A stretch of DNA of 64,000 nucleotides. Source: Flaccisagitta enflata (lineage: Eukaryota). Numbering within the stretch: the first letter of the stretch is position 1; the number at the start of each line of letters is the position of its first letter. Below are positions 6,930 to 44,897 of the stretch, one piece after another. The stretch lies in assembly GCA_965153355.1 (NCBI GenBank), contig OZ231126.1:40486001-40550000 (forward strand). The letters are read 5' to 3'. The position numbers and the translations under genes are program-made. Below the pieces are notes generated by a model. The model saw nothing but the letters and a program-made list of their open reading frames with translations. It ran no database searches and was not told where the DNA came from.

Positions 6930-9741
6930 AGATTGGTTGGAACATAAGAGCCGATGATGAAAAATGGGATAGATTTACCCAAGAATTAAGAAAAAGATGT
7001 GAACGAGCGACCCAAATAATCTCTAACTCAGAAATACCAATAGATGACAAATATAAAAAGTACTTAAATGAAATCGAACGCAGTGCCCTATGTTCTATTG
7101 GGAAAACCACTTTCAAAAATAGACCCAGAGCAAGGACATCAGAAACAGTAAAGAATTTACAAAACAAAAAACGACCACTGAAAGATCAAATTCAAGCTGA
7201 AAAAGATCAGCTTCGACGGGAAATTTTGATCAATGAATACAAAGATATCCAACAAGAAATTCATGACAAAATGAAACGTGAAAAGGTTGAAGAAATAACT
7301 GAAAAATTAGAAAAAATCATGGCAGATGGCAGCAAAAACGCTCTTTGGAATGAAAAACGAAAGATGGAACGTGATCATTCCCTTGATTACCTTGCTATGA
7401 AAAATGAACAAGGGATGTGTCTTTATGACCCTGAAGAGTATAAATCAGAGCATGCAAACTATTTTGAAGGTCTTTACAAGCCAAAAGAATTTGAGTATCA
7501 TCCATACCACACTGAAGTCCTTAAAAAGATCGACGAATACACAAAAGATAGAAATCATGAAGATACCACTTACAATAGAATACCCACTAAACAAGAAATA
7601 GCGGACATCATAAGAAAAAAGAAAAATGGCAAATCAACCCCTGACATAAGAAACGAGATGATTAAAAGAGGAGGAGAACCAATGATTGACATCCTTCACC
7701 CTCTTGTGGTTGAATGGTTTGACACCAAGTATATGGAACCATGGTACAATAACATGTCTGTACAAAGGTAAAGGCGACAAAGAAAAACTGTGCAATCATC
7801 GCGGGATAACAACGTCTTCTTCAATTGGCTCAATTATTGAAACTATGATTGATAACCGCATTACACATTTGGTGGAATTCACTCAAGCACAAGGTGGAGG
7901 AACAAAAGGGGCTGCATGCGCAGACCATTTATTCATTCTCCGTGCTATCATCGATATATCCATTAAAGAAAAACGCTCAACCTTTATAACCTACTATGAC
8001 GTCTCAAAAGCATACGACAATGTAGACAACAACGATCTTCTTGTCACAATGTGGGAAAAAGGTTTGAGAGGCAAGTCGTGGCGAATTCTCAAAAACTTAA
8101 ATTCAAACTTGACAGCATCTATCAAAACCAGATTTGGTCCAACTCGTGACGTTTCCATGGAAATAGGAGGAAAGCAAGGTTCAAGGCTAACAGGGAGAAT
8201 GTTTAGCAAGATGATGGATCTGTTATCAGAAATGTTAAGTGAAACGGATTTAGGATTCAAATTAGATGACGACTTTATCATCAGTGTCCTCCTATGGGTC
8301 GATGATGTCATTTCGTGTACTGAAAGCGAAGAAGACCAAGAAGAAATGCTACTTAAAATCAATGAATTTGCAATTAGACACAAAATAAAATGGGGTCAAA
8401 ATAAGTGCAACATCATGAGAGTTGGTAAGCATAAAAAATCTGAAAGGGAATGGAAATTAGGGGACATGGTCATCCAAGAAACCAAAAAATATAAATATCT
8501 TGGTGACATAGTAACGCCTGATGGCAAAAATACCGAAAATATTCAAAGTTGAGGCACTAAATTACAGTCAACAACAATAAATATAAACACAATAGCCTCT
8601 AGTGAGATCCTCCACCGCATCAAAACTACAGTCCTACTTGATATGCATGAAAAGAAGAGTATCCCTGGCTTCTTAACCAACGCCGAATCTTGGAATCTGA
8701 CCCATAAAGAAGAAAAAGAACTAGAAAAAATAGAGATCCAAGCGGTAAAATACTTGTTTGACTTACCTGTACACATGCCAACGGTTGCCATACTCTACTC
8801 CCTTGGTCTACTCTACACAACCCAACGCATTGACCAAATACAGTTAATATACCTTCACAGACTGCTTCAAAGAGACAACAAAGATCAAACTAAAAATTCC
8901 TTACACACACTAAGAGACAAAAAAGCCGGATGGTTCGAAAGAATATCAAATACTTTACAGAAGTACAACCTCCCAACAGACTTCCAAACCATTGCCTCCA
9001 TACGTCCAAACCGTTGGAAGAATGCAGTCAAACTAGTTGTTGATCAAAAGAATAAGGAGAGATTAAAAGACGATTTGTACAAATGTGAGAATGGAATCAA
9101 TACCTTAAAAACAAAAACTAAGTCCATTCTAGAAAAACTCAACGATCCACTGTACACAAGACAACCTGAACGTGAAATAATAAACACGACAAAAAACGAG
9201 ACCAAAACAATTCTTATAGCCAGATATGGTATGCTACAATGCGGGACTAACTTTAAAGGCACAATAAATCCGACATGTCAAACATGCGACGTCTTAGACA
9301 ACAAAGATCATAGATCAAATTACTGTCCAAAATGGAATACACCCGATGAAATAGAGACAAGAGAATATGTTGACTTTAACTTAATTCATAGTTCGGACAT
9401 TAATGTGATTCGCCCGATAATACAAGAGATAAACCGTTTATGGAATACTAAATGTGCGAATGGATCTATGAACAAATAGTCTTACCTTATGTTTTTCTCC
9501 CGAAATACCCAATGGATTTTAGTTTTAGTTTTAGGCCAATTAATTGACACTCCTTTCGACTGTGTTTTAGCTCTAAAATTTTGGTTATTTATTCATCTAT
9601 GAACACACATACGGACCCACCCTTGGACAAACTAGATTTAGATGTATTTTTCACATGGTACCTTGGTACTGCTCCATAACAATTGTTGTTATAATGTGAT
9701 GAACGCACATATGAGCAATTACAATCAATCAATCAATCAAT
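6930..9741 (+). mobile_element. 5'-truncated non-LTR retrotransposon (LINE, CR1/L2-like), disrupted ORF2 reverse transcriptase
   Basis: RT motifs CLYKGKGDKEKLCNHRGIT, YYDVSKAYDNV, GGKQGSRL, LLWVDDV and KYKYLG, plus a C-terminal CQTC...H...C knuckle. Frameshift near 7715, in-frame TGA at 8550-8552, ORF end at 9479, then a 3' UTR and a (CAAT)n tail at 9722-9741. No endonuclease domain seen. Confidence 0.9.
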
Positions 9742-25224: not shown

Positions 25225-25470
25225 TTATGCCATTTTGGCCTCCACTTTAGGTGCCATCTCGGTCTATGCCGTATTGGCTCTCCTATATCACACTATGTGC
25301 CATCTTGGTCTATGCCGTATTGGCTCTCCTAGTCCATTCTAGGTGCCTTCTCAGTCTATGCCGTATTGGCCCTCCTAGTTTCTTCTAGGTGCCATCTTGG
25401 TCTATGCCATATTGGCAGTCCTATTCTACTCTAGGCGCCATCTCGGTCTATGCTGTATTGGCTCTCCTAT
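25225..25470. repeat. ~46-bp tandem repeat (GTGCCATCTYGGTCTATGCCGTATTGGCTCTCCTA...)
   Basis: About five units in phase. Confidence 0.85.
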
Positions 25471-27476: not shown

Positions 27477-28403
27477 TACTCCTACAGTTCCTTGTTACAT
27501 TACATTTACAAGAGACTTGTGCTTACACAAATACTTGAATTACGTTTACATACGTAATTAACCTATGCAGAGTATTTGGTTTTTATTCAGTGCTTGGAAA
27601 TTTAGTCTAGCGCAGAGAGACCCAGTCAACCTCAGACAGAAAAACTTAATTTCCAATAACTGCCTTTTTTTATCTTAGTAGAGGTTATGATTAGTAGTGT
27701 TAGTACACATCTTTCAGGCGCGGACACCCAGAGAGACATTACATCGACCTCAGACGGTACTGCAGGCCATCAAGATGTGCTGGATTCTAACTGAAGGTAG
27801 AAGAAGGTCTTGGCTTTCAACCACGTCTAGTGTGCAATGGCTTTTGTACTTCAGCTCAGTTCGATACTGCGCCTACTTGGTCATACAAAGCGCCTCTAGA
27901 CGAGACCCGACAGAGTCTGCTGACCCGAGTGGTTACACAGACCTAAGGTCTGCTTTCTTTCTTAAATCCTCGTCTTTCTTCTTGCCATCTAAAGGCAACA
28001 GCATGTCAAACAAACATAAAACCCTCCTCACTCCTTCTAGTTCTCATTTGAGATATCCAATTTCAAATGAGAAGTAGTGCTACGCTGCGCTAGAAAATGG
28101 CAATCTTTTTTTTTTTTGCCTGGGGTTGTGGTTGCAATATAGTGACCATCCGCCCCCTACATCCCTATTACTAGGATGTAAGATCCGAGTTCCCTAGGAG
28201 TGCAAGTGTGCCTTTCATGAATGTTTGACATACCTCCAAATCCCTATCGCTAGTGTGGTTGATGGGCACAAAAAAAAAAGGATAATTGAAAAAGTAGACT
28301 CCCTTAACCCACTTGCAAGAAAATTTTGTTAAAAATGTGCGCCCACCGACCCAATCATCAGTCACTCATCTCGAATGCACACACATTCAAACCCATCCAG
28401 ATC

Positions 28404-28447
<44 letters not shown>

Positions 28448-28448
<1 letters not shown>

Positions 28449-28906
28449 GTTAAGTTACTATTCAATGTACTGTTAATAATCTGAATTACTTGTTAGACTA
28501 GAAGTTTTCAACTCTTTCCTGAATACTTAGGTAGCATGGAATAGGCCAGGGTTATTACGTTGCAAGCAATGTTCTATTAATAGGTGACAAGCAAGAACCA
28601 ATAGTTAGGTAACAATTTAAACTTACATGTTTATGGAGCATGTGTTGACCCAAGGTAACTTTAGTGGAGGATCCACATACAATGTGATCCTCCCTTTTAT
28701 AGTCAGATATTTTCTACGTAATAAGCTCCACGTATTTAAGAATAACTATTCCAACATGATTCCACGTAGATTAAAGCCACATAAAGTTAGATGTATGTTT
28801 GAGTTAAACATGATACTTTGAACTAGATTAAAGGCGCCTTTGGAAACAAACATAGATGAGAACAGGAATATGTTTCTATCACGTTGCGCACTTTATATTT
28901 GCAACG
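28448..28906 (-). repeat. 3' LTR
   Basis: Matches 44432-44890 except two substitutions seen by eye (GTTCTATT/GTTATATT and AGATGTAT/AGATATAT). Confidence 0.95.
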
Positions 28907-29427
28907 TGACCAATATACTATTCTTACATTACTCCCACATGGTTAAAGTGCAATGGAACTTTTATAACTCAAGGCAAAGTCATTAACAATTCACAAAAAA
29001 ACTTCATTTAGACAAAATACACAAATTGTATACACTTTTCACCAAGATAGTAACGATCATGTAATGCATCAATTATAATAATCAAACAACACCTACTTCT
29101 AATGCGAATGAACCTTATCATTATTGAAGATTGATCTACATGGGAGGAGACTCATTACTATACATATAGTACACTATTATTGCCACCTCATCACTTCAAC
29201 TGTGCCATTATTTCTTTCTTAACACGCTGTATTCACGTGTCCTCTCATTTTGACTTATATATTGACCTCTAAAATTAGGAGAGATAGAGAAAGAGAGACA
29301 GAAATAAAGGAAGAGAGTGAGAGAGATAAGGAGAGAGACATAAAATCAAAGGGAAAGAGAGAGAGAGAGAGAGAAAAATTCTCCTGTCACCGCTCCATTT
29401 CGTCCCCAAAGTATCACTCCTATCCAG

Positions 29428-29571
29428 CCAATCACGTATCTCCGATGCTTTGTCAACTCTAAACTCGCTTCCTTATTGGATAACGAACCAGACAGCAGCG
29501 CGATAATTCGCTATGTCCTCGCCTTTCAATACCCACAACAATTTTCATCGTTGAACTGTCGCATATATAAA
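29428..29571 (+). promoter_or_regulatory. Putative antisense Pol II promoter inside the LTR element
   Basis: GCCAATC near 29428, ATTGG near 29475 and TATATAAA at 29564-29571, upstream of the ATG at 29687. Confidence 0.5.
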
Positions 29572-29686
29572 CCTGTTCACGCAGGTAACATTGGGGTTTT
29601 ATCACTTTAGTTTTCTTGATTTGCTAAATATTGTATTAGATTTCTTTTGCTTTTGCATTTTTAATCATATCCGTCACATTCTCAAA

Positions 29687-30172
29687 ATGTCGCTCATTTC
29701 GCACATTTCCTTTACTCTACTAATTTCATTTGCGTGCTCGCTCAATTCCGACGGCACCCCAACGGCCTCCCCTTCCACTCGGGGCCCATACGCATTTTTA
29801 CGCATGAAGTGTTACCGTAGGCAAGCCTTACATTCCAAGACTTGTCAACGGTATTTTGCGCTTCTTGCAAATTCGACGACGCCAACCATTATGGCTCGTC
29901 AAAATCTCACGACCGACATTGCGGTCACAACTGCAATTCCAACAGCAGTTTTGACCGTAAAACTGGAAACCGGCGTCCCCACCTGGCTGACCACACTTAT
30001 CAGCCTTTTTTCAGTGTTAGCATCCATCTATGCTGCTATTGTATCTTATTTGAAATTCGCGTGCAAATACACCACTGGGTCCAGTCTCCGGCTTGGCTTT
30101 GGTCCGGGCCGCCATGGTCAACTAGAGACCGAGGCACCCGATTTGCCCGTTGAATTGTCTCCAGTGGCCTAG
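29687..30172 (+). CDS. Antisense accessory gene A: predicted type I membrane glycoprotein, 161 aa
   Basis: AAAATG start, signal-like N-terminus (MSLISHISFTLLISFACS), a Cys pair, sequons NST and NLT, a Thr-rich stalk and TM WLTTLISLFSVLASIYAAIVSYL followed by KFACK. AATAAA at 30215-30220. Confidence 0.7.
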   Translation: MSLISHISFTLLISFACSLNSDGTPTASPSTRGPYAFLRMKCYRRQALHSKTCQRYFALLANSTTPTIMARQNLTTDIAVTTAIPTAVLTVKLETGVPTWLTTLISLFSVLASIYAAIVSYLKFACKYTTGSSLRLGFGPGRHGQLETEAPDLPVELSPVA

Positions 30173-30640
30173 ATGGATTTTATTTAAAAAAAAAACTTAA
30201 TTGTTTTTAGTCCTAATAAATATTTTCTAATCCTTCTTCTTTTTATTCCTTTTTGTTTTCGTCAATAATATTTTATCTCTTAATAACTAATATTTTCATA
30301 GTAGTAGACCAAATGATATAACTTTTGATAACTTTTATTCCAATCCATATTGCTATTATTTCTTTTCTTTTCTTTTTGTCTGACTATACAAAAATAAATG
30401 TTATATGAATTTTATTCCTTTCATTAGTTTAAAAAGGTGGGGATTCCGGACTATTTTATCGTTTCCTCTTATTGTTTTACTCATTTATGCTATTTTAATT
30501 AGGTTTAATTTTACTAGGCCAAAATTTAATCGATTTTACCAAAATTTCGAGATAATCACTTTTCATTTTATCACTATACCTGACTAATAGACAGACATAC
30601 CAACTCACTATCCTACCGACTGTCCTACTGACCTCCCGAC

Positions 30641-32329
30641 ATGAAAGGTGATTATCTCTTTGCTAAGGTCAGGGTTGTGCTATGACGCGCAGCCCTGGCC
30701 GTTTGCCCTTACATTTTTATCACAGGCACAATCCCAACCTCACGACGCTAAGATCATACATGCCTCAACGTCTGCTACAGACGCTGCTCCGAGATGGCCC
30801 TGTCAACCCTGTCGTCGAAAGCCACAAGCCGTCGCAGCTCCGCAGCATCCCCGCGGTTCCTGCCAAAATCTCCAGCCTCCACATCCTGGAAGCCTTATCC
30901 ACATCTCGTATCAATTACGTATCGACACGTCCACCAAAAAAAAACGTCCCAAGCAAAGAATTTCGTACAACGGTACCCAGCCCATCGCTCCTGCCCATCA
31001 CGGCCTCAGCATGGTATGCCTCGTCAAAAGCTATTATCACTTTTTACATCCACACGCGAGTTGTTTTTTCGCGTATCAACAAACCACCGACCGACACATT
31101 TCACCTTTTCTTAATTATAAGAACCTGCTCTATAAGACCATCATGGCATTAGCACATCCTAAGATTAAGAACATCATATTTCACTAGTCGTTATTTATGA
31201 AGGTTCCGAAATATCACGTCCGTACAAAATTGTATCAAACCATCACATCTCTTTTTTTCTTTTAGGACACGCTCTCTTTCGAGGCTCTTGAGGAGCACGG
31301 CTGGGAAAGAAAAGCCTGCTCCCTCGCAGTATCTGCCTTAGGTGAGCATAAACTCATTTGACTCCGTCTGTTTTCCAAGCTCGTTCACTCGCTCATAATA
31401 AAAAAACTCCCATCTACGACTTTTTTTACGGTCGGCGAGAGCCGCTTTTATCGTTAAATTCCACTCTCGTATTTTCTCGTAGGGCATTTAAGTGATTGTT
31501 TACCATCCAAGCCGCTGAATCTGGGCAACTTCATCCAAATCGCCCTCCTCGCCTTTTTGGTTCTCTACGTCATCGCCAAAAACCTCCGCAGAGGTGAGAA
31601 TCCATCTCGGGCAGAAACACCAATTATTATAAGCACCGTGCCTAACCATCCGTTTCATGCTGTTTATAAACCAAATGACCAGACATAACGAACAAATCAA
31701 CAAATGAATGAATAAACGAATGAATGAATGACTAACTGAACGATTGACTGAATCATCGAATGAATGACTGACTAACTGAATGAATGAATGAATCACCGAA
31801 CGAATGAATGACTAATTGAATGACTGAATGAATAACCAACTGAATGAACTAATGAATCACTGAACGAATGAATGATTTAATCACCTCCTTTGCCTGTCCC
31901 CGCCCCCATACAGGTTACAAATGGTGTTTTCGCACCCATAAAGTTTTCGTCTCCGACTGTTTGGATCGTCCATCAACAGATCGAGCCCCATCAACCACCA
32001 ACACCGCCACGGACCTTGCTGTCGTCACGACCACGTTTCACCGTCCATCGATGCAGGATGATGCGTGCCCCGACTACGCCACCATCCATCTACCACCCAA
32101 ACGCAGTACTGGTGAGAAAACCTTCCTTCACTCTTACTCTTTTAACGGCCCCCGCGATCTAACCAACCTATCCTTATTTAGCAGTAAATCCATTATTACA
32201 GTATGCCGTCTATAACAGCCTAACATAACTTCATGCCTACATACTTACTCTTACCCAACCATCCACAATGTAGCCATTGAAGCTCCATCCAGCGTCACCA
32301 CCAATGCTGTTGTCCATCTCCCAGCCTGA
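30641..32329 (+). CDS. Antisense accessory gene B: predicted six-exon single-pass membrane protein, about 250 aa
   Basis: Exons 30641-30667, 30726-31013, 31266-31341, 31483-31593, 31914-32111 and a last exon at 32182-32228 or 32274-32329. All introns are GT-AG with compatible phases and the frame stays open. TM is FIQIALLAFLVLYVIA followed by KNLRRGYKWC. Confidence 0.62.
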
Positions 32330-32586
32330 GACTACACATGGATGAACAGAACACAAACTTTTTATTCGAATATAAAAATTATTACAGTACTAGTAGACAA
32401 AAAGTGAAACTTTATCCTTCATTTCTTAAGACAGCATAACTATCAATGACTAATTTAACTGAAGCATCTGTACTGTTATCTACCATCGCCTTCCAAATTC
32501 CATTTATTAAGACAGTATAACTATCAAGAATACACCAACATGAAAGAAATTCATTGTTATTCACTACTGTCTTATTACAATAGAAA

Positions 32587-33255
32587 CTAGAACGACCAGA
32601 ACAGAGACCTGTATCCTGCCCCAACTGTGTAGGTCTTCCTATCCGTCCATTTAACAAAATTAATCCCATCAATCACAAAAGTGATCAGTTCTTGGTAGAG
32701 GGCTATCCCCTGTTCATTAAGATGGACATTATCTCCTTCAAACAAACATAATCTGGGCAGGGTCCCCCTGTGGTCCTTCTCGGCCACATAGGTATCAGTG
32801 CACCAATGATGGTGCCAGTAGCCGGCCCTGACCATCAACTCATCATACTCATCCACCACCCTTAAGAACCATTCCCCAGACTTAACCAGCGCCTTTTTAT
32901 CCGGTATTCTAGGCAATATGGGCGACGATATGAAGAGACAGCCGGGATTTTTCTCAGCTGTCTCTTTGACCATTTCAGCGATTTGACCCACCAGCTGTGT
33001 TGGTCTCATACCCTTCACTACATCATTACCACCCACTAGGATTAACAGAGCAGAGTAGGCCCCAGCCCCATATTGCAGCTTCTCCAGGATGACCTTCACA
33101 TGCCTCATTCCTCCTCCTGCCACGGAGTAAACGTTGAACCCATTGCGCTGCATAAAAGGCGCAATTCTTGAGACGTGACTATCTCCAAGACAAAGATAGG
33201 AGTACTTTTCGTCAATCCATCTTGACACCTTTTTTCCATGAATCTTTCTCGGAAC
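32587..33255 (-). CDS. SGNH/GDSL hydrolase in the env position, probably expressed by splicing
   Basis: Blocks LCLGDSH, VAGGG, LVGGNDV and GDNVHLN are all present. No ATG start, but an in-frame phase-0 acceptor TTTAATCAG|GTT opens the exon at 33255. AATAAA on the minus strand near 32361-32366. Confidence 0.85.
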   Translation of the reverse strand, partial: VPRKIHGKKVSRWIDEKYSYLCLGDSHVSRIAPFMQRNGFNVYSVAGGGMRHVKVILEKLQYGAGAYSALLILVGGNDVVKGMRPTQLVGQIAEMVKETAEKNPGCLFISSPILPRIPDKKALVKSGEWFLRVVDEYDELMVRAGYWHHHWCTDTYVAEKDHRGTLPRLCLFEGDNVHLNEQGIALYQELITFVIDGINFVKWTDRKTYTVGAGYRSLFWSF

Positions 33256-33936
33256 CTGATTAAATTAACAAGGATATCATCCCGTCAATCATCAATCAGA
33301 GTTAACCCACCACCTAAATTGTCATAACATTATTCTTAACACGATAAAAACTTATTCTTTCATTTCTTTTTAAAATTACATCATATTCAGTCCATATCTA
33401 CTAATTAAACCTTTTTTTTAGGATTTTATCAAAACTCTTTTCATAAAATTTCAACAAAATTTTATAAAAATACATTTTTCCAAAATTATATCAAAATTTT
33501 ATCAAAATTTTATCAAAACTCATTTTTATAAAAATTTTATCAAAATTCTATCAACATTTTATAAAAATTTTGTTATCAAAAAAATTTTTTTTTTTTTACC
33601 AAATTCTATAAAAATGTACCTTACCAAAGTCATACCAAAACTTTATCAAAATTTCATCAAAATTTTATCAAAACTCTTTCTTTTTTTTATAAAAGTTTTA
33701 TCAAAATTCCATCAACATTTTATAAAACCAGTAAAGTTATATCAAATTTCTCCACCCTCAAATTTCAATAAAATTTGAACCAATTCCTACAAAATTATAT
33801 CTTCACTCCAAGAAATCTAATCAAATTTTGTCAAAATCAATCAAATGACACTTGATGTCATATACTGAAATACCCAACTAAAGTTCCTTCAATCACATGA
33901 CATACTAATACCACCTCAATCAGCTATTGCTGACTA

Positions 33937-36900
33937 CTAATTATTATCTAATTTGTTCATTAATGCTTTTGCATCATCCAATGACAGCCTACTCCGTATC
34001 ATTTGATCTATAGGAAGAAGCTTTTTAGTACCATCTAACACATTTTTGCACAAGTACATACTTGTCCCTACCCGTCTTTCTATTGAGAAACACTCGACCA
34101 CACGTTGCTGTAATTTGGGCGCCATGTTCCTAGAGAATTGCATCCGCTTTCTAAAAACAATTGACCCATGTTTTAGGGCCTCGTTTGGAAAAAGATATGC
34201 CTTACGCTGAAGTAATTGCTTAAAAGTCACATCCTTAATTAACTCATGCATTTTGTTAATCTGCAAAAATGTCTCTTTTGCCCTCCCCCCCCCACCAACA
34301 GGTTCCTCCAATGGGGTCAGTGTGGACAAGAAACGCGGACCTTTACGGAATATCAACTCGTTAGGAGAAAATCCACCCAACGATACACAAGGTGAGGAAT
34401 TTATCAAGAATGTTGCTTTACCTAGAACATCCGACCATTTAGATAGGTAATCTTCCCCATCTAGCAGTCTTAATATCACTATAAGCAGATCTCTAAATTT
34501 CCGCTCCACCAATCCTTGGCTCTCGCTCCTGTGATTGCTCCGGATAATCCCCACCCTCAAACCATCCAACAGCTTTTTATCCACCTTTCTAAAGCTGACG
34601 CAATTTCCATCAATCATTACATATTCAGGCAGACCATTTTCCCCAAAATAATTAGTGAGGGCTTCACAAAGTTCTTCTGCCCCCGTGCTTTTCATCTTTA
34701 TCGTCGTCAGCCCCTTATTGTAGTTATCTACTAAGGCCAGTATATATCTATAAGACTTAGATGCCGGGAGGGGACCTAAATAGTCCAATTGCAACCATCT
34801 GCCAGATTGCGTGGACATCAATGTAGAGTTTTTGCCTTTTATCACCTGTTTGACATTGTATTTAGTACAGGGGACACATAAAGCAATCTGATATCTAGTC
34901 ATATTAAACATTCCTGGCGAATACCACACCTCCCTTAGCTTATCAAACACTTTCTTGGTGTGCATGTGGCCATGCTCAATATGCAAATTATTTATTTTCT
35001 CCTTCAGCCCCTCCTCCCCTACATATATTAAAGGAGATATCACACCCTCGGTTGTCACAAACAGCCGAAATATCACCTTTTGTAGGCTAATTTTAAATAA
35101 TGACAGATGTCTTATTACTGACCACCACCTATTATTGAATCTCAAACTATCGCTTTTATCAGGGATATTTTCCACCCCTTCCTTCCAGCCTCTTATCTTC
35201 CTTCCCATTTCATCATCTTGCCCCTTTAGGATCCCTTCAAGATCCTCATCTTTTACCATGGGTAATTCATAGTCGCTATAAATATCATCGATACTCATCT
35301 CCTCTATCCCTTCCTCTAATTCCGCAGTCGTCAAACGCAAGGACGCATCCGCCACACCCTCAACTGCCCCTTCCTCCTCCTCTACCTCTTCTTTCGCGTC
35401 CTCTACCACCTCCTCCTCCTCTTCCACCGCGTCCTCTCCCGCCTTCTCCTCCGCCTTCTCCTCTTCCTCCGCGTCCTCTACTGCCTTCTCCTCCTCCTTC
35501 GCGTGCTCAACCGCATCTCCCTCCTCCACTGCATTCACCACCGCCTCCTCCTCCTTCTCTTCCTCCTCCGCATCCGACGCCACATCTTCCTTTTCCGCCT
35601 CCATTCCCGCTTCCTCCGCTTTCAAGGGCCATGACGAATGCAGGACTCCCTCGCTGCCCAATATCTCATCTCTCATCCGGAGAACAAAGCAGGTACATGA
35701 GCAGTGATCATCTTTCTCCGCATTATTCCATCCCCCACACTCGCAAGGGGAGCATTTTTCTTTCCTACTTTTCAACCCCTTCAATTCTCTCTCCTCACTT
35801 CTCCTCGTCTTTCTCCTCCTCCTAGCCGCCTTTCTCATTCCCCTTTTACCTTTCTTACTGATATTCAGCCCAACGTGAGGGTCAGCCACAACCCCCACCC
35901 ATTCCTCATTACCTTTCCCACCTCCACCCAACCCTGACATAGCAAGGTGGATTTTTTCTGTCACATATTTGTCAGTGCTATTAATCAATCCCTTCATAGC
36001 CAACAATGTGTGTTTGTGTGTCTGCGCTGTTGTGTGAGCATTTGTATGTGTGACTAAGTGGTTCTCAGGGACATTATCATCCCGCCTTGGAGTTACACTC
36101 GGATTTTTACTAAACCTTGGAGCTACGCTCAAACTAGGACATTGCTCACTAATGACAGGTGCGCCGGGAAGATCCTTCCCCTGTAGGGCTTGCATAGGCC
36201 GCTCCGGCGCCCCACTGCCGCACTGGGCAGTTATGTTTATACTATGGGTCGCCGCTCCCCAGCTTCCCAATGATGGGGGCATGTGAGCTCTGGCCCCATC
36301 ATTGGGAATTGCCCCCGCCGCACAAGGGGCAATACCCAAAGTCAAACCCACATCACTTTTAGGTTTAAATGAGTTTCCCCTTTTCACCCGCCCCTCCAGT
36401 CTGTCGGAGGTCAAGTTCACGAGGTCCCCCCCTTCAAGTTCTAAGGGTTTAATTTCCCCCCCTCCCAATTCCAGTCTGGCGGAATTGGGAGGGGCGGGAC
36501 CCCCCACTCCATCTACCTTGGGTATCTTAGCTAGGGGCCCTTTTTTAGTCTCCATAAAGTACCGGTTTATTACCGGTTTATTAGTTCTCTTTTGTCACGC
36601 GAAAAAAGTTTATCAACCCCCAATTGAATTCCATTTGCATTGAAAATCTTTAAGGACCCTAACGGGTTATATTCGTACGGTAATCTTGCTGCTACGTCCG
36701 ATTTGTCCAATCTTGATAGTATGTCTGCCTGCTCCTGACTGGACGGAACGAATCTTACTTCAATGTTATAGTCGCTTATATAAATAAGCCAGCGAGCAAC
36801 CCGCTCACTGACTATCTCCATGGATACCCAAAAACTAAGGGTCCTGTTATCCACAAAGCATACCGCGGGCACTGAGGTTTGGATATAGCACCTCCATTTA

Positions 36901-39383
36901 CGAAGACAGAGATATAATGACTGAAGCTCAAGCAAACACATTGGGAGCAACGTATCTCTATCTGGTATAGATTTTGCATAATATTGAATCAAATATAACC
37001 TTACAGTTTTAGGGTCCAAACCTTCCTCCCTCACCTCCCTCTCGCTCACCCTCTGAAACTGAGAAAGTAAGCCCCCACAGCCTGTCCTTGAACTGTCACT
37101 CCACAGTACAAAGAACTCCTTAGCTGTGGGGTCCCTAGGGGGCCTCAAACACCCGCTCACTGGACAAAGTAGGATGGACAAGGCCTCACAAAGTTGGGAT
37201 TCATTTTCAGAGCTCCAGGAGAAAACTGCCCCTGCCTTGGCCACCTTCCTTAGCCCATGCATGGGGTCTTTCAAGTTAGCCCTCCCTGCGTACCAACTGA
37301 GAAGGCCTAATATTGACCTCAACTCATCCTTATTCCTTGGGGAGGGGATATTTCTCAAGTCCGTCATCTTATTTGAAGCAATTCTTATCATATTATTATG
37401 TTTCAAAGCATAACCTAAAAAATTTACACACTTCCGTGGAAGTTGAGTCTTTTTAGGACCTATGAGTAGTTTAAAAAAACTAAAAGCAGCCAATAGCCCC
37501 TCCACATTGTCTTTTAGCCCTACCAATGACATAGAATATATCATATAATCGTCAATGTAGGCAACTGTTTCCTTACAATGTGCAGTTACCAACTCAGAGC
37601 AAGCCTGACTCATCTGAGGGGAATTTTTCCCCCCTTGCTGAGGTGTTGTAAAGCGATAAACCCCATCATCCCCCACATAAAAAGCAGTTAAATCTCTAGA
37701 GGAGGCCTGGAGGCCGATTTGGTGAAAAAAATTAGTCATATCATAGGTCATGAAATATTTACCACCCCTACAACACGACTCAAGCACATCATCCATGATG
37801 CGTAATTTGCATGTTACGGTCTTCATGATTTGATTCTGATTTCTTGAATCAAGGCAGAACCTATAAGCCATCTTAGGGCCATCAGGGTAATTCTTTATCT
37901 GGCCTAAAATCAAAGGGTTGCAAATATAGCTAGAAGAGTTATTTTCACATCGTTCTAGTATACCTGCCTCTACCCAATCCTTCACAAACTTCCTTAAGAC
38001 CTCCATCTTCTCAGGGGATAGCCTCCTAAATTTATCAATTCTAGGGCCCGACCCCTCCACTGTCTCAATACTAAATTCTGGTATGTTGGCCCTAGTCCAA
38101 CAACTCCAACTACCATTCCAGAATGTATTTCTATATGCCCAGAATAATTCCTTATATTCCTCGGCATATTTCACTGCCCCTTCCCTACCTAGGTCTTCCT
38201 CCAACTCGTTCACCATTTCATCCCATTTGAACATAGACAAGAACTCTTCTTTATTCTTCCACATCCTGTCATTGTCATTCTTTCTTCTTTCCTCCTCCCT
38301 GTCAATCTTATGTTTCCTTCCTACCTCCCCAATCTCTTTCACCTCCCCTTGTGGGGGTTCAATCACTCCTCCATGCTCATAAAAATGATCCAGCTCAGAA
38401 GGGGTCAATTTTCTCCTTTCTGTACCCCCGCTACCCCCACCATCATTCATCTCCGATTTCAACACTCTATCGCCAGACTGACAGACATCTTCAATCACTT
38501 CATTCAGCCTAACAATACAGATTGACTCACTTTGTGCAGCCGCAAATCCTATGGTTTCTCCCGATCTAATTGTTAAAGGTACCTTTCCCTTATTTACAAC
38601 AATCATTTGTAACCCCCCTTCCTCCACTTTCTCATATACAGTGCTGAGGGGAAACCTGGCCTCCGATTCGAAGCCCACTAACGCCAAGGAACCAGTCAGG
38701 CGCGAAGTCAACTCTACATTAACCAACTCTGCTGCATTTCCAGGTAAAATGTACTCCATTGTAGTTACTACGTGTACATAGTCAGCCCCAGTATTCATCA
38801 TTCTCTTGAGATCTGACCTCGAGTTGCACAGAGAGACAATATGTGACCCTATAGACAGTGTACTGTTTTCATAGTTTACAACTGCCCCTAATTTACCCAA
38901 TGCATCACTCCCCATCAAGACTGGGATATCAGTCTCCACCACATAAGCCAACAAAGTTATTTTTAACTGTTTACCCTCCTTGCTCCTAAACCACACCCTG
39001 AGTACTGTGTAGTCATAGCAACTGATTTTTCTACCACCCACCCCTGTAATATCCTTTGGCTTGGCAAACCTTTTCATAGGCAATCTCAATTGCCTGGCCA
39101 AAGATAACGGTATCAACGATCTATCAGACCCGGAATCTAACTCAAGGGCAAATTTTTCCTTCCCCTGCCCAGCCTCCACCTTCCCCACCAAAAATAGGGG
39201 TTGTGCCGGGCCCTGGTCAAAATTTACCCCCTCCATCTGACCTATATCCCTCAGCTCTTCCTTAGTCAAAATATGCACCTTTTCCACCTCAGTATCCTTC
39301 TCCCCCATGAGTGACTGCTCCTGCCCAACCTTTTTGTCAGCCCTCTGAACATAATCCTGCTCAGTGCCCAAAACTCCGTCTAG
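33937..39383 (-). CDS. pol: Pol polyprotein (PR, dUTPase-like, RT, RNase H, long linker, integrase), split by an 11-bp duplication
   Basis: PR LELDSGSDRSLI; RT RFCLDSR, YDMTNFFHQI, QQGGKNSP, AYIDDYMI; RH WSDSS, LLELQS, FVDNR, QADILSR; INT HIEHGH...CVPC, LQLDYLG, MIDGN, SQGLVER. The ORFs 36570-39371 and 33937-36555 fuse if one TACCGGTTTAT copy (36560-36581) is removed. Confidence 0.95.
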
Positions 39384-40310
39384 TCACTCCACATCGGAGA
39401 AGTCTGAATCTTGAAATGTGAAATCCTTAAAATCATCAGCAATTTTCATAACATTTGTCCGTTTTTCCACCACGCTATCCCTCACCCCTAAGAAAGTGGT
39501 CAAATTTCGTGGGGCTTTCCCACAAATCAGAGAATAGTGGCGGCATACCGAGCTCTTTTTCCCACAGAAGCGACAATGAGTTTTCTTACACTCAGTCACT
39601 CTGTGCTTATCCGAAAAACATTGGAAACATCGGTGATTAACCCCTTTGTCCGTGGCGACCTCAAAATACTTTCTAAGTGGGTCATCAAAGATTTTGTGGC
39701 ATACCTCATCCTCTTCTTGACCTTGATCACCCCCTCCCACCATCAACACTGAGTCCCCAGGTTTCTCCGTCTGTAGATTGTTTGAGATGCTCACAGTCAG
39801 CTCCATTATCTCCTTGAACTCAAGGGCCTCAAGGTTGTGGCGTCGCACAGCTGCCCTTAGGCTAGCTGAGGTCAGTCCGTCTATAAACTTGTTAATCTGT
39901 GGCTTCAGCTCAAACCCCATAAGGACACAAAACCCCTTAAATCGTCTAGCATAGTCACGTATGCTCCCCTTAAGTGGGTAGGACTGTGTAAGCTTATCAA
40001 ATCCAATCCGTAGGGTGGATGTAGGGGCAGGCCAAATTGCAGCAAACAGGTCCTTAAAAAACGTATTTAAGTCCCATTTCCCACTTTCTTTGCATTCATC
40101 GTATATGAAATTTGCTTCCCCCCTCAAACGCTTATCACAATTATGCATGACAACCATAACTTGCGTTTTTTGAGTCTCCTCCCCATAGTACAACATAACT
40201 GCACGGTGAAGCAAAGACTGGGATTCTATGAATTCCGTTATGTCTTGTGTATCAACCAGCTTCACATCAATGATTTTGTTGCTCTCACTAATGATTTTTC
40301 TTACGCTCAT
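39384..40310 (-). CDS. gag: Gag (capsid/nucleocapsid), 308 aa
   Basis: Capsid-CTD-like LTQ...SIRDYARRF...KFIDGL and knuckles CFQCFSDKHRVTEC and CRFC...H...C. In frame with pol. Confidence 0.88.
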   Translation of the reverse strand: MSVRKIISESNKIIDVKLVDTQDITEFIESQSLLHRAVMLYYGEETQKTQVMVVMHNCDKRLRGEANFIYDECKESGKWDLNTFFKDLFAAIWPAPTSTLRIGFDKLTQSYPLKGSIRDYARRFKGFCVLMGFELKPQINKFIDGLTSASLRAAVRRHNLEALEFKEIMELTVSISNNLQTEKPGDSVLMVGGGDQGQEEDEVCHKIFDDPLRKYFEVATDKGVNHRCFQCFSDKHRVTECKKTHCRFCGKKSSVCRHYSLICGKAPRNLTTFLGVRDSVVEKRTNVMKIADDFKDFTFQDSDFSDVE

Positions 40311-43300
40311 TCCCGCAGGAGGACGGTAACGACGTCTGCCATGTCCCTGCCATGTCCCGAGGTCGACGTATCGCTGTAATCGTCGTCTTCATCGACATTT
40401 CGCCTTCCTCCATATCCACGTCGTCCATCATCATCACCACGACGGTCCCCGCCATCGTCCCGGCGTCCATCGTGACGAGGATCGTGTTCATCCTGTCCTC
40501 GGTCGCCGCCTCTTTGACCATCGGCGGCCGCCGCCAGAAATGGCGCTGTCGATCTCACCACGTGGTTTCCCGTTGACGCCATCCCGAAGAGCCGTGAATT
40601 AATATCACCCTGATGCACGCCCGTCGACGCTGTGCCCAGACCCAACGACGCTCTCGACATCATCCCCGTTGTTGGAAGGTCGTGAGACTGTGGCGCCACA
40701 CTTTCTGTTGCCGAAAACTTTATCGCTTCCGCCGCCGGTAACTTCGCCGCAGTCGCCGCCTCAATCGCCGTAAGGCGGCGTTCCGACTCCGCCACCCTCT
40801 GGATCACCTCCTGTTGCGTCTTCAAAGCAGCATCTCTCTCTTTGATAGCTTGATCCCTCTCGGCCTCCACTTCAGCCATCGTCTTCCCATCCGAGCTCAA
40901 CATCGATCCAGCGAACCCGGTAAGCTGCTGCTCTTTGCTGTTCAGTTCAGCTCGGGTCAAAGTCAACTTTGATTCCAAATCTTCCAGCCTGTTAGACCAA
41001 TTAACAATACCGTGACCGTCTTTTTCCCTCCCAGATTCTCGATGCGCGCCCAACATCATTCTTGGAAAGCAGAACAACTCACACCACCGCCCCTCAGGTA
41101 AGATTAGTCACCATCAACAAGCGCCTTTCATGAATGATAGACTGACTGATCGATTGAATGAATGAATGAATGAATGAATGAATGATTGAACGAATGATTG
41201 AATGAATGAATGATTGAATGTATGAATGATTGACTACATGAATGAATGAATGAATGAATGACTGAATAAACAAATGAATGAATGAATAAATGAATGAAAG
41301 AATGAATGAATGAATGACTAAACAAATGAATTATTGCATGAATGACTGAATGAAAGAATGACTACACAAATGAATGAACGAATGAATGAATGACTAAACG
41401 AATGAATGAACTACTGAATGAACCAACGACTGAATGACTGAATTACTGAACGAATCAACGACTGAATGAATGAATGAATGAATAACCGAATGAATGAATG
41501 AATGAACAACTGAATGAACAACCGAATGAATGAATGAATGAATGAATAATTGAATGAATGAATGAATGAATAACTGATTGAATGAATGAAAGAATGAATA
41601 ACCGAATGAATGAATGAATGAATGAATGAATGAATGAATGAATAACCGAATGAACGAATGAATGAATGAATAACCGAATGAACGAATGAATGAATGAATG
41701 AATGAACAACCGAATGAACAACCGAATGAATGAATGAATGAATGAATGAATGAATAACCGAATGAATGAATGAATTAATAACCAAATGAATGAATGAAAG
41801 AATGAACAACCGAATGAATGAATGAATGAATGAATGAATGAATGAATGAATGAATGAATGAATGAATGAATGAATAACCGAATATGTGCCAACTTTCATT
41901 ACACAGAATTGCGAACGCAACGACGAGAGAAAATAACATCCGACGGACACACATGCGGCGAATCAATATCCGACATGCCCTAAAAATCTCCGCAAAACGA
42001 AAATAGAGAAAAAGACGACCGGACACTTTAGGTGGCGAGCGCATGCCGAGGACGAAATTGGATAACCAAACGGAGAAAAACAGGTGCGGAGAAATCAGTG
42101 TGAATGATACGAGTTGGTACATGATGAGTTATAGGAAACCCAAAGAAACTTATCAAGTCGCGATACAGCCTAGTTTGCAATAGCTACCGTTAAAAATTTT
42201 ACTAACACTTTCCCACTCTTACCAACTTATATCAATTTAACAACATCTAACACAATTTATAACAAATCTTATCAAAATTCCTAAAATTCTACCAAACCCT
42301 AACAAATTTAATAATTCCTAACAAATCTCATCAAATTTTGAATTTTGGCAGACTTCAACACATTCACACAAATATCATCGCAATTAATATAATATTAAAT
42401 TTCATTTATTTTATTTTACCAACTGTATAAGTTCTATTAACCTTCAATAGCTTTTATTAAATCTTATCAAATCTACACCATTTTAACAAACACTATTCAA
42501 ATCTATCAATTTTACTAAAAATATCAACAATTTTTAACAAATATCAACAATTTCTAATAACTTTTACCAAACTTTAGTAAATTTTAGTAAATTTCAACCA
42601 AAATAAAATTTTACAAAATTTTAACAACTTTCTCAGCAAAATTAACAAACTTTAACAACTTTCAGCAAATTTTAGCATATTTAACAAATTTAACAATTTT
42701 AACAAATTTTTAACAAAATTTTAACAAATTTAAACAAATTTTAGCAGATTTTAGCAGATTTTAGCAGATTTTATCAGATTTTATCAGATTTTAGCAAATT
42801 TAACCAATTTAACAAATTTTACAAAATTTCAACAATTTCTTAACAAATTTTAACAAACTGTAACAAATTTTAGCAAATTTAACATATTTAACATATTTAA
42901 CCAAGTTTAATCAATTCTAACTAATTCTCACAAAATTTAACAAAATTTTAACAAATTTTAACAAATTTTAACAAATTTTAACAAATTTTAACAGAATTTA
43001 ACAAAATTTTACCAGAGTTTAACATACTTCCACCAAATTTTATTTTGATCTAATTTAAGTTATTTGATCATTTCATATCTTATAACATTTTATCATATCA
43101 TTATCTTTCTGATCACACGCCTTTTCTTGTTTTCAACCTACATAGGTCCGATACTCTCCCCACGATGCCAGCCTACTGACCTATCATCCATCAACACAAC
43201 ATACGTGTCCCATCCACAGGTATCTACCTTTCTCTAGCAGCTGCCAGATCAGTACTCAATGTTTGATTCCGTAAACGAAGGTCTTCCTTCTCAGCTTCTA

Positions 43301-43969: not shown

Positions 43970-44419
43970 ATTGATACGAATTTACAATCTATCCTCCTAT
44001 TTATGTACTGTCAGTCCGTCTGTCATATGTATGTTAATTTATCATTTACTAAAAATATGTATACTTTCTATCTTTTATAAGAACCTGTTAAGAACATCAC
44101 GCTTTTACTCAATTTAAACCAATAACACATCACTCCTCCACCAATTACCTAAAAGACGTGATGGTCTCAACGTCCTCAAAAACATAAAAAGTGTATCATA
44201 TAGTCCCGCACAATAGAGCACCGACCAACACATCCCTGTGACACAGCCGGTGACTTGGCCTACCCACCCGCTGTGTCACCGGGACATCCATCATCCAATA
44301 CCGACAAAAGACGGAGACTTACAGTAGATACAAACACCCTACTCGATTTTCAATGCAAATGAAGCCCAAAAATTATTCCCCCCCTCCTGATCCCCACATT
44401 GCCCACAACGCGAAATGAC

Positions 44420-44431
44420 CGCTGCTAACCA
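44420..44431 (-). promoter_or_regulatory. Primer binding site, initiator-Met tRNA-like
   Basis: TGGTTAGCAGCG directly follows the LTR end ...TAACA. It matches the complement of an iMet tRNA 3' end CGCUGCUACCA with one extra base. Confidence 0.7.
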
Positions 44432-44890
44432 TGTTAAGTTACTATTCAATGTACTGTTAATAATCTGAATTACTTGTTAGACTAGAAGTTTTCAACTCTT
44501 TCCTGAATACTTAGGTAGCATGGAATAGGCCAGGGTTATTACGTTGCAAGCAATGTTATATTAATAGGTGACAAGCAAGAACCAATAGTTAGGTAACAAT
44601 TTAAACTTACATGTTTATGGAGCATGTGTTGACCCAAGGTAACTTTAGTGGAGGATCCACATACAATGTGATCCTCCCTTTTATAGTCAGATATTTTCTA
44701 CGTAATAAGCTCCACGTATTTAAGAATAACTATTCCAACATGATTCCACGTAGATTAAAGCCACATAAAGTTAGATATATGTTTGAGTTAAACATGATAC
44801 TTTGAACTAGATTAAAGGCGCCTTTGGAAACAAACATAGATGAGAACAGGAATATGTTTCTATCACGTTGCGCACTTTATATTTGCAACG
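44432..44890 (-). repeat. 5' LTR
   Basis: Direct repeat of 28448-28906; TATAAAA on the minus strand near 44680; followed by the PBS. Confidence 0.95.
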
Positions 44891-44897
44891 TGTGGGT

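Follow-up and report, generated by a model that had tools for sequence, protein, structure and literature searches.

The stretch of contig OZ231126.1 analyzed here (positions 40,486,001 to 40,550,000; 64,000 nucleotides, hereafter the window) is eukaryotic DNA, rich in repeats. Judging from its sequence, it carries a young 16.4-kb Ty3/gypsy-like long terminal repeat (LTR) retrotransposon in minus-strand orientation. Two genes lie on the opposite, plus strand between the LTRs of this element: gene A, a multi-exon gene at 30641–32329 (coordinates of the window throughout), and open reading frame (ORF) B, which has a single exon. Gene A is supported as a spliced plus-strand transcription unit antisense to gag-pol, located between the LTRs of one element and comprising at least five exons and at least 147 aa. 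It faces a sense ORF for a GDSL esterase in a tail-to-tail arrangement.

The sequence-only reading of the window had proposed six exons joined by five GT-AG introns of compatible phase and a protein of about 250 aa. The splice signals of all five were present in the sequence, with donors GTCAGG, GTATGC, GTGAGC, GTGAGA, and GTGAGA and with AG acceptors following pyrimidine-rich tracts. The joined exons (30641–30667, 30726–31013, 31266–31341, 31483–31593, 31914–32111, and 32274–32329, all on the plus strand) amount to 756 nt and give a 251-codon open frame that ends with a TGA stop at 32327–32329. Putative exon 1 consists of an ATG and eight further codons before the donor GTCAGG and was placed from sequence alone; exon 2 has ATG (31011–31013) as its last codon; exon 4 encodes the predicted transmembrane helix and the start of a polybasic segment; and exon 5 encodes a predicted Ser/Thr/Pro-rich cytoplasmic tail. 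An alternative acceptor for the last intron at 32182 was rejected, since it introduced a premature stop and had no RNA support.

RNA from three runs was placed on positions 29000–33900 at 90% likeness or more: X1 and X2, which are metatranscriptomes of one marine sample, and X3, which is polyadenylated RNA. Gene A was represented by three RNA contigs, one of 629 nt (X2) and two of 348 and 285 nt (X1), covering 30950–31013, 31266–31341, 31483–31593, 31914–32111, and 32274 to approximately 32457. The joints in these contigs fell exactly at 31013/31266, 31341/31483, 31593/31914, and 32111/32274, skipping 252, 141, 320, and 162 nt, respectively, with 63–184 nt of overlap on the shorter side, and on the plus strand every skipped segment began with GT and ended with AG. 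Of the five predicted junctions, four were therefore recovered to the nucleotide, including use of acceptor 32274 and not 32182 by the last intron, whereas 30667/30726 had no coverage. Exons 3, 4, and 5 had both of their junctions in RNA contigs, exon 2 was covered at its 3' end and joined to 31266, and downstream of the stop codon in exon 6 the RNA ran on as 3' untranslated region (UTR) and ended near 32457 without a canonical polyadenylation hexamer. A 27-nt direct repeat (93% identical, copies 81 nt apart at 32420–32446 and 32501–32527, plus strand) lies between the 3' end of gene A and the GDSL stop codon, and the RNA contigs end beside its first copy. Identity between the contigs and the window was approximately 98% (12 listed substitutions and 2 indels), so that their source is a closely similar, but not the same, copy or allele. 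A search of Rfam with 28400–33900 at E <= 0.1 gave 0 matches and no sign of a small nucleolar RNA host gene or similar.

Several features of these RNA data weigh against the reading of gene A as an expressed gene of this element. Exon 1, its junction, and most of exon 2 were without RNA coverage, the contigs starting at 30950. All of the support comes from one environmental sample, and a metatranscriptome may also contain DNA. The contigs show neither strand nor transcript ends, the strand being deduced from GT..AG. X1 and X2 had a depth of 0 on the adjacent sense GDSL ORF (32608–33263) and on ORF B, where a relative below 90% nucleotide identity would escape placement, so that the gene A transcript could derive from a paralogue outside the element. 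A 2-nt deletion at 32320 in the RNA contigs replaces the last 2 residues and lengthens the frame by approximately 37 residues. X3, of which about 6% was covered, yielded 62 reads, every one of which matched the stretch only in part, at simple repeats, and missed the exons; these reads are uninformative on expression either way. They pile up on a degenerate (GAAT/GACT)n microsatellite, which occurs in intron 4 (31674–31893) and in approximately 0.9 kb of the leader upstream of gag (41046–41962). In the one sample, with the sense GDSL ORF at zero depth, the data support transcription of gene A on its own.

An open frame can arise readily on this strand. The plus strand is stop-poor, with 120–180 codons free of stops in each of the three frames over exon 2, and pol is overlapped by antisense ORFs as long as 228 aa. 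The spliced plus-strand RNA might accordingly be a long non-coding antisense regulator that pairs with the sense transcript or primes small-RNA silencing, its frame being a by-product of a C/A-rich, stop-poor strand; regulatory antisense transcription has been proposed for LTR retrotransposons in the available part of one source (PMC7264820). The frame of the spliced RNA is harder to account for in this way. Exons 2 to 6 of the RNA contain a 242-codon open frame that runs across four independently defined junctions, a length reached by 1 of 5000 composition-preserving shuffles (mean longest frame, 98 codons), and this is informative because the junctions were set by RNA and not picked to keep the frame open. 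Among the 10 listed substitutions within the frame, 6 were synonymous in the predicted frame compared with 2 and 1 in the other two (binomial P = 0.017–0.046, depending on the assumed transition bias), including 4 of the 7 listed in exon 5. Codons 105–251 showed the usual first-position excess of G (0.30, 0.16, and 0.14 at positions 1, 2, and 3). In a small and crude codon-usage test, a codon model trained on ORF B scored the predicted gene A frame best (10.5 versus 3.1 and -42.6), and the reverse test also worked (4.9 versus -23.2 and -9.0). The GC content was 53% in exons and 39% in introns. Two further points argue against a regulator of this kind: the product has a coherent membrane-protein layout, and the position of the transcript, entirely beyond the sense ORFs, restricts its overlap with the genomic RNA to the 3' untranslated part.

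Database searches did not add to the coding evidence, and their outcome fits a non-coding RNA as well. The exon 5 peptide had 0 matches among proteins of 115–2000 aa. The 119-aa frame containing exon 5, searched against 1.84 billion representatives, matched only P0001, a 1963-aa repetitive protein (E = 4.6e-6), and this match was rejected as compositional, falling on a Thr-rich stretch. Pfam searches with exons 2, 3, 4, and 5 translated separately returned 0 families at E values up to 10. The 2-nt deletion in the RNA copy likewise leaves the C-terminal end of the frame unfixed. On balance, we regard the non-coding explanation as quite improbable and gene A as fairly probably coding, with its C-terminal 147 residues likely so.

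The N-terminal part of the six-exon model is another matter. The open frame in exon 2 carries no weight because all three plus-strand frames are open there, and the codon score of the proposed frame was the worst of the three (-20.3 bits versus -4.9 and -6.7). Exon 2 also contains out-of-frame ATGs at 30760 and 30794. Furthermore, an 18-nt inverted repeat on the plus strand (30549–30658) forms a hairpin with arms at 30549–30566 and 30641–30658, which are 94% complementary with 1 mismatch and enclose a 74-nt loop, and the 18 opening nucleotides of putative exon 1, with the ATG at 30641 among them, make up its 3' arm, which counts against that exon. As RNA, the hairpin folds with -25.2 kcal/mol (z = -3.36), a stability that 1 of 200 shuffled sequences also attained; it may be regulatory or represent a tiny foldback insertion. 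Together with the lack of RNA, these features leave exon 1 unsupported, and the N-terminus encoded by exon 2 looks more like a 5' UTR. The ATG at 31011–31013 is the first downstream of the contig start at 30950 and reads A..ATGG after splicing; we lean slightly toward initiation there (147 aa) over the 251-aa model. The 251-codon frame of the earlier proposal is present in the sequence, but six exons and about 250 aa are uncertain, the doubt falling on exon 1, intron 1, and the N-terminal 104 residues.

In the 147-aa model, a 39-residue N-terminal part with two Cys is followed by a transmembrane helix and an 88-residue Ser/Thr/Pro-rich tail. A Kyte-Doolittle scan revealed one hydrophobic segment, at residues ~141–166 of 251, with a maximum of 2.27 over 19 residues. 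Six Lys/Arg are found in the 15 residues after the helix, and the net charge of the 14 residues before it is approximately 0. The sequence KNLRRGYKWC spans the exon 4/5 junction after the helix, and DYATI follows further on in exon 5; the single hydrophobic helix, the basic Cys-containing segment, and the DYATI motif pointed out earlier were all confirmed in the sequence and by the hydropathy scan. From the scripted hydropathy scan and charge counts only, protein A is most likely a small single-pass membrane protein with a predicted N-out/C-in topology, and its tail is most probably disordered and carries a predicted Yxx-hydrophobic motif. The juxtamembrane Cys might be acylated, and the Tyr motif might serve in sorting.

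The carrier is delimited by a pair of co-oriented 461-bp direct repeats, 99.566% identical, at 28448–28908 (3' LTR) and 44432–44892 (5' LTR), the sense strand of the element being the minus strand of the window. A TGG-initiated, primer-binding-site-like sequence at 44400–44431 (minus strand), which begins TGGTTAGCAGCGG, adjoins the 5' LTR. From the ORF listing, a gag-like region of two overlapping ORFs was located at 39384–41107 (minus strand); it had no Pfam match and contains a CX2CX4HX4C zinc knuckle at 39588–39629. The ORF at 36570–39383 (minus strand) encodes protease (PR), reverse transcriptase (RT), and RNase H, with Pfam matches to RVT_1 (E = 5.5e-16) and RT_RNaseH (E = 6.9e-9) and a match to Asp_protease_2 that was below its cut-off (E = 1.2e-3). 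The integrase (IN) ORF at 33937–36594 (minus strand), identified from Pfam and the ORF listing, matched Integrase_H2C2 just under the cut-off (E = 1.9e-5, 25.1 bits versus 25.5). Its residues 1 to ~500 form a long low-complexity, Glu/Lys-rich N-terminal part with no domain match, ahead of the H2C2 zinc finger, and the pol and integrase ORFs overlap by 25 nt in different frames. The domain order gag, PR, RT, RNase H, and IN is thus found entirely on the minus strand.

The gag and pol ORFs share one frame and are split by a single in-frame TGA followed by CTA-G (39366–39401, minus strand). UGA-CUAG is a known efficient stop-codon read-through context, which suggests that gag-pol may be expressed by stop-codon read-through. 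Sense ORF3 (32587–33264, minus strand, 225 aa) encodes a GDSL/SGNH esterase-lipase, with a Pfam match to Lipase_GDSL_2 (E = 9e-9, 36.5 bits versus a cut-off of 32.9) and all of the GDSH, GGND, and DNVH blocks present. Positions 28909–32586 constitute the pol-to-3'LTR region of the element, in which gene A lies between the sense GDSL ORF and the 3' LTR. Among the matches listed, the relatives of the element RT were anonymous environmental proteins only (43–73% identity), and the named proteins similar to its pol showed 28% identity or less and were all from fishes; this RT/pol lineage is poorly sampled. Neither blastn nor tblastn found further copies of the element inside the 64-kb window.

ORF B (29687–30172, plus strand, 161 aa) is accompanied by signals of its own, namely CCAAT at 29428–29432, a TATA box (TATATAAA) at 29564–29571, and AATAAA at 30215–30220. 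As read from its sequence and a hydropathy scan, its product starts with a hydrophobic, signal-peptide-like stretch and continues with one transmembrane helix and a short tail. Intact 161-aa relatives were found in public assemblies, one of 99% identity (P0041, on 3 contigs of 1318 nt or less) and two of 84% identity (P0034 and P0036). These relatives differ by substitutions and in-frame indels only, with the transmembrane helix and the juxtamembrane KFACKY invariant, so that ORF B is, on this sequence comparison, evidently a real, constrained gene. Proteins A and B had no detectable likeness (best blastp E = 0.4) that would mark them as paralogues. In the ESM Atlas, the best score for ORF B was 0.80 (recognition 1737), below the informative range; a match to an influenza M2 cluster (0.76) is not evidence.

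Strand composition bears on whether genes A and B belong to the element. The plus-strand GC skew was between -0.20 and -0.33 in every sub-part of 28909–32586 (exons and introns of gene A, the latter whether or not the microsatellite was counted, ORF B, and the two spacers), and the GDSL, IN, RT, gag, and leader regions fell in the same range, whereas the LTR showed +0.06 and the adjacent flanks -0.07 and +0.13. In 400-bp windows, the antisense-gene region had a mean of -0.245 (9 of 9 negative) compared with -0.304 for the element core (21 windows; P = 0.48), and it differed from 118 windows outside the LTRs (mean ~+0.03 to +0.05; P = 2e-4), with the qualifications that such windows are autocorrelated and that outside repeats have skews of their own. 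The uniform skew indicates that positions 28909–32586 have long shared the strand-asymmetric history of the element, and it ties A and B to that element; support for this is moderate.

This composition also bears on an alternative in which A and B are ordinary host genes that lie between the LTRs of this one copy, through recent DNA-level capture or rearrangement or because a solo LTR sits beside a 3'-truncated element, and in which the RNA comes from a cellular parent locus or allele and the genes have no role in the element. The excess of C over G starts at the left LTR boundary and then runs on evenly across A and B, in exons, introns, and spacers alike, as it does in gag-pol, with -0.07 in the 8 kb outside, which would be unexpected for a recent capture. 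The co-orientation and 99.6% identity of the LTRs also speak against this alternative, as do the absence of a matching duplication flanking the left LTR by itself and the antisense placement of both genes together with signals of their own, the sole configuration that survives passage through genomic RNA.

Other observations favor the host-gene explanation and count against A and B as genes of the element. A clear polypurine tract was not found next to the 3' (left) LTR, and the 5-mers flanking the element (TGTGT and TGGGT) agree in 4 of their 5 positions, an imperfect target-site duplication. X1 and X2 cover the exons of gene A but have zero depth on the GDSL ORF and ORF B, and the 84% variants of ORF B are as compatible with a small family of cellular genes as with subfamilies of the element. 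For plants, the capture of genes by LTR retrotransposons is well documented, according to the available part of PMC7264820. Nor did wider searches connect the genes to further copies: in metagenome contigs, the GDSL ORF gave 137 pattern matches with 0 confirmed and a 24-nt exon 3 pattern gave 0 matches; in viral contigs, 0 were confirmed of 14 matches for the GDSL ORF, 73 for the RT alignment, and 35 for the ORF B alignment; and in prokaryote genomes, 0 of 39 matches for the ORF B alignment were confirmed. Weighing the two sides, we consider the host-gene explanation unlikely.

The reading we prefer, and hold to be somewhat probable, is that gene A is an antisense accessory (passenger) gene in the pol-to-3'LTR region of the young Ty3/gypsy-like element. 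Gene A would be transcribed from the plus strand by a promoter of its own, independently of the LTR-driven genomic RNA. On the sense strand its introns read CT..AC and its polyadenylation signals are inverted, so that both would be invisible in the genomic RNA, and the intron-containing gene would pass reverse transcription unspliced and be copied along with the element. The presumed survival of antisense introns through retrotransposition, put forward in the sequence-only reading, is logically sound because the introns read CT..AC on the sense strand of the element, and it is indirectly backed by the element-wide GC skew, which includes the gene A introns and the spacers. Engineered antisense-intron retrotransposition reporters exploit the same principle. 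We infer family-wide carriage and co-mobilisation of gene A.

Genes A and B would then form a two-gene antisense cassette of membrane proteins beside the sense GDSL esterase, and protein A, with ORF B and the esterase, might act at membranes for the element, which is speculative. With low certainty, the function of gene A may be that of a membrane-acting accessory factor of the element; almost as likely, it could be a selectively maintained hitch-hiker of host origin. A bolder version, which we rate as very unlikely, is that an env-less, GDSL-bearing lineage of LTR retroelements in a marine eukaryote permanently carries A and B and employs their products, in the manner of a surrogate envelope, a fusogen, or a viroporin-like factor, to associate with membranes or spread from cell to cell, its gene expression being divided between a sense LTR-driven programme and a spliced antisense one.

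Two other features of the window lie outside the element. A separate reverse-transcriptase ORF at 6932–9479 (plus strand; RVT_1, E = 2.6e-15), flanked by long ORFs without Pfam matches, probably marks another retroelement. At 25241–25470 (plus strand), four tandem copies of a 46-bp unit were found, with 80–83% identity.

Antisense accessory ORFs are acknowledged but unexplained in some plant LTR retrotransposons, and antisense genes occur in a few retroviruses. The present locus is a natural case of a multi-intron gene, with demonstrated splicing, riding antisense in an otherwise complete gag-pol element, and it belongs to a pol lineage with anonymous environmental relatives only among the matches listed. 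The pairing of gene A with ORF B and the sense GDSL esterase points to membrane biology and not to the nuclear regulation proposed in plants. Should the whole family carry the cassette, it would follow that retroelements are able to take spliceosomal genes along and spread them, and the locus offers a concrete system for antisense accessory gene function; if it is a one-off capture, it would still be a clean case of an LTR element duplicating intron-containing host genes.

Reovirus FAST fusogens are small (below ~200 aa), bitopic N-out/C-in proteins without a signal peptide that have a polybasic cluster after the helix and an ectodomain acylation signal or a hydrophobic fusion patch. The loose likeness to them suggested by the sequence-only reading holds at the level of architecture and for the 147-aa model only, in which protein A is a small protein without signal peptide whose short ectodomain leads into a single helix with a polybasic cluster directly after it; the 251-aa model is above the FAST size class. 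Unlike FAST proteins, protein A has no Met-Gly for myristoylation at either candidate N-terminus, has no second hydrophobic patch, has no family match, and is encoded by a retrotransposon and not a reovirus. Membership of the FAST family was rejected because Met-Gly, the second patch, and a family match are all lacking.

Among retroviruses, a parallel is offered by HBZ of human T-cell leukemia virus type 1 (HTLV-1), a spliced antisense gene that begins within the 3' LTR and whose product is a nuclear regulator of the bZIP class. Like HBZ, gene A is read as a spliced, protein-coding antisense transcript of an LTR retroelement that would be independent of the sense promoter. In contrast to HBZ, its product is a predicted transmembrane protein in which no bZIP or other Pfam domain was found, and its known exons start approximately 1.8 kb inside the 3' LTR; the start of the transcript appears internal.

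In the Retand/Tat lineage of plant Ty3/gypsy elements (Grande gene23, RIRE2, and Retand TRP28 ORFs), antisense ORFs (aORF-3R) of unknown function lie between pol and the 3' LTR, and their origin by transduction has been discussed (PMC11963269, PMC7264820; available parts of both). Gene A shares with these ORFs its antisense orientation to gag-pol, its position between pol and the 3' LTR, and an unusually long region that holds tandem repeats. The plant ORFs mostly encode a TRP28 domain or nuclear, DNA-binding-like proteins, whereas gene A encodes a predicted membrane protein, and exons 2–5 gave no Pfam match to Transposase_28 (PF04195, TRP28) at E <= 10. Gene A also differs in having at least four spliced introns, the word "intron" occurring 0 times in the available parts of PMC11963269 and PMC7264820, and in a host that is apparently of a marine, non-plant-like lineage. 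No LTR retrotransposon with a multi-intron antisense membrane-protein gene was found in the main texts of the literature covered; the supplementary element lists of PMC11963269 might include intron-containing antisense ORFs. Antisense transcripts with multiple spliced introns are described for the Drosophila telomeric element TART (PMC1636488); unlike the carrier of gene A, TART is a non-LTR element, and the available part of that source reports no antisense membrane-protein gene.

Further comparisons concern bdelloid rotifer LTR elements and a Penelope-like element. The ORF3 modules of the rotifer Vesta, Juno, and TelKA LTR elements, described next to ORF1 and ORF2, comprise a GDSL esterase/lipase after pol, env-like ORFs, or small transmembrane ORFs for which a membrane role in place of env has been proposed (PMC5408684, in part), and a membrane role for small transmembrane or GDSL ORF3s in rotifer LTR elements is also proposed in the available part of PMC6431247. 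The GDSL module known from these elements sits here in a very different pol lineage. The available part of PMC5408684 mentions no antisense ORF or intron for the rotifer ORF3s (it uses "antisense" a single time, of small RNAs, and "intron" never), whereas here the GDSL ORF is sense and two transmembrane genes are antisense, one of them multi-exonic. In Adineta vaga, a Penelope-like element moved a gene with all of its introns, and its authors point out that an intron in antisense orientation escapes recognition (PMC3846280, in part). According to the same source, the Penelope-like element acted in trans, on a gene flanked by pLTRs without element-internal sequence, whereas genes A and B lie within an otherwise complete gag-pol element.

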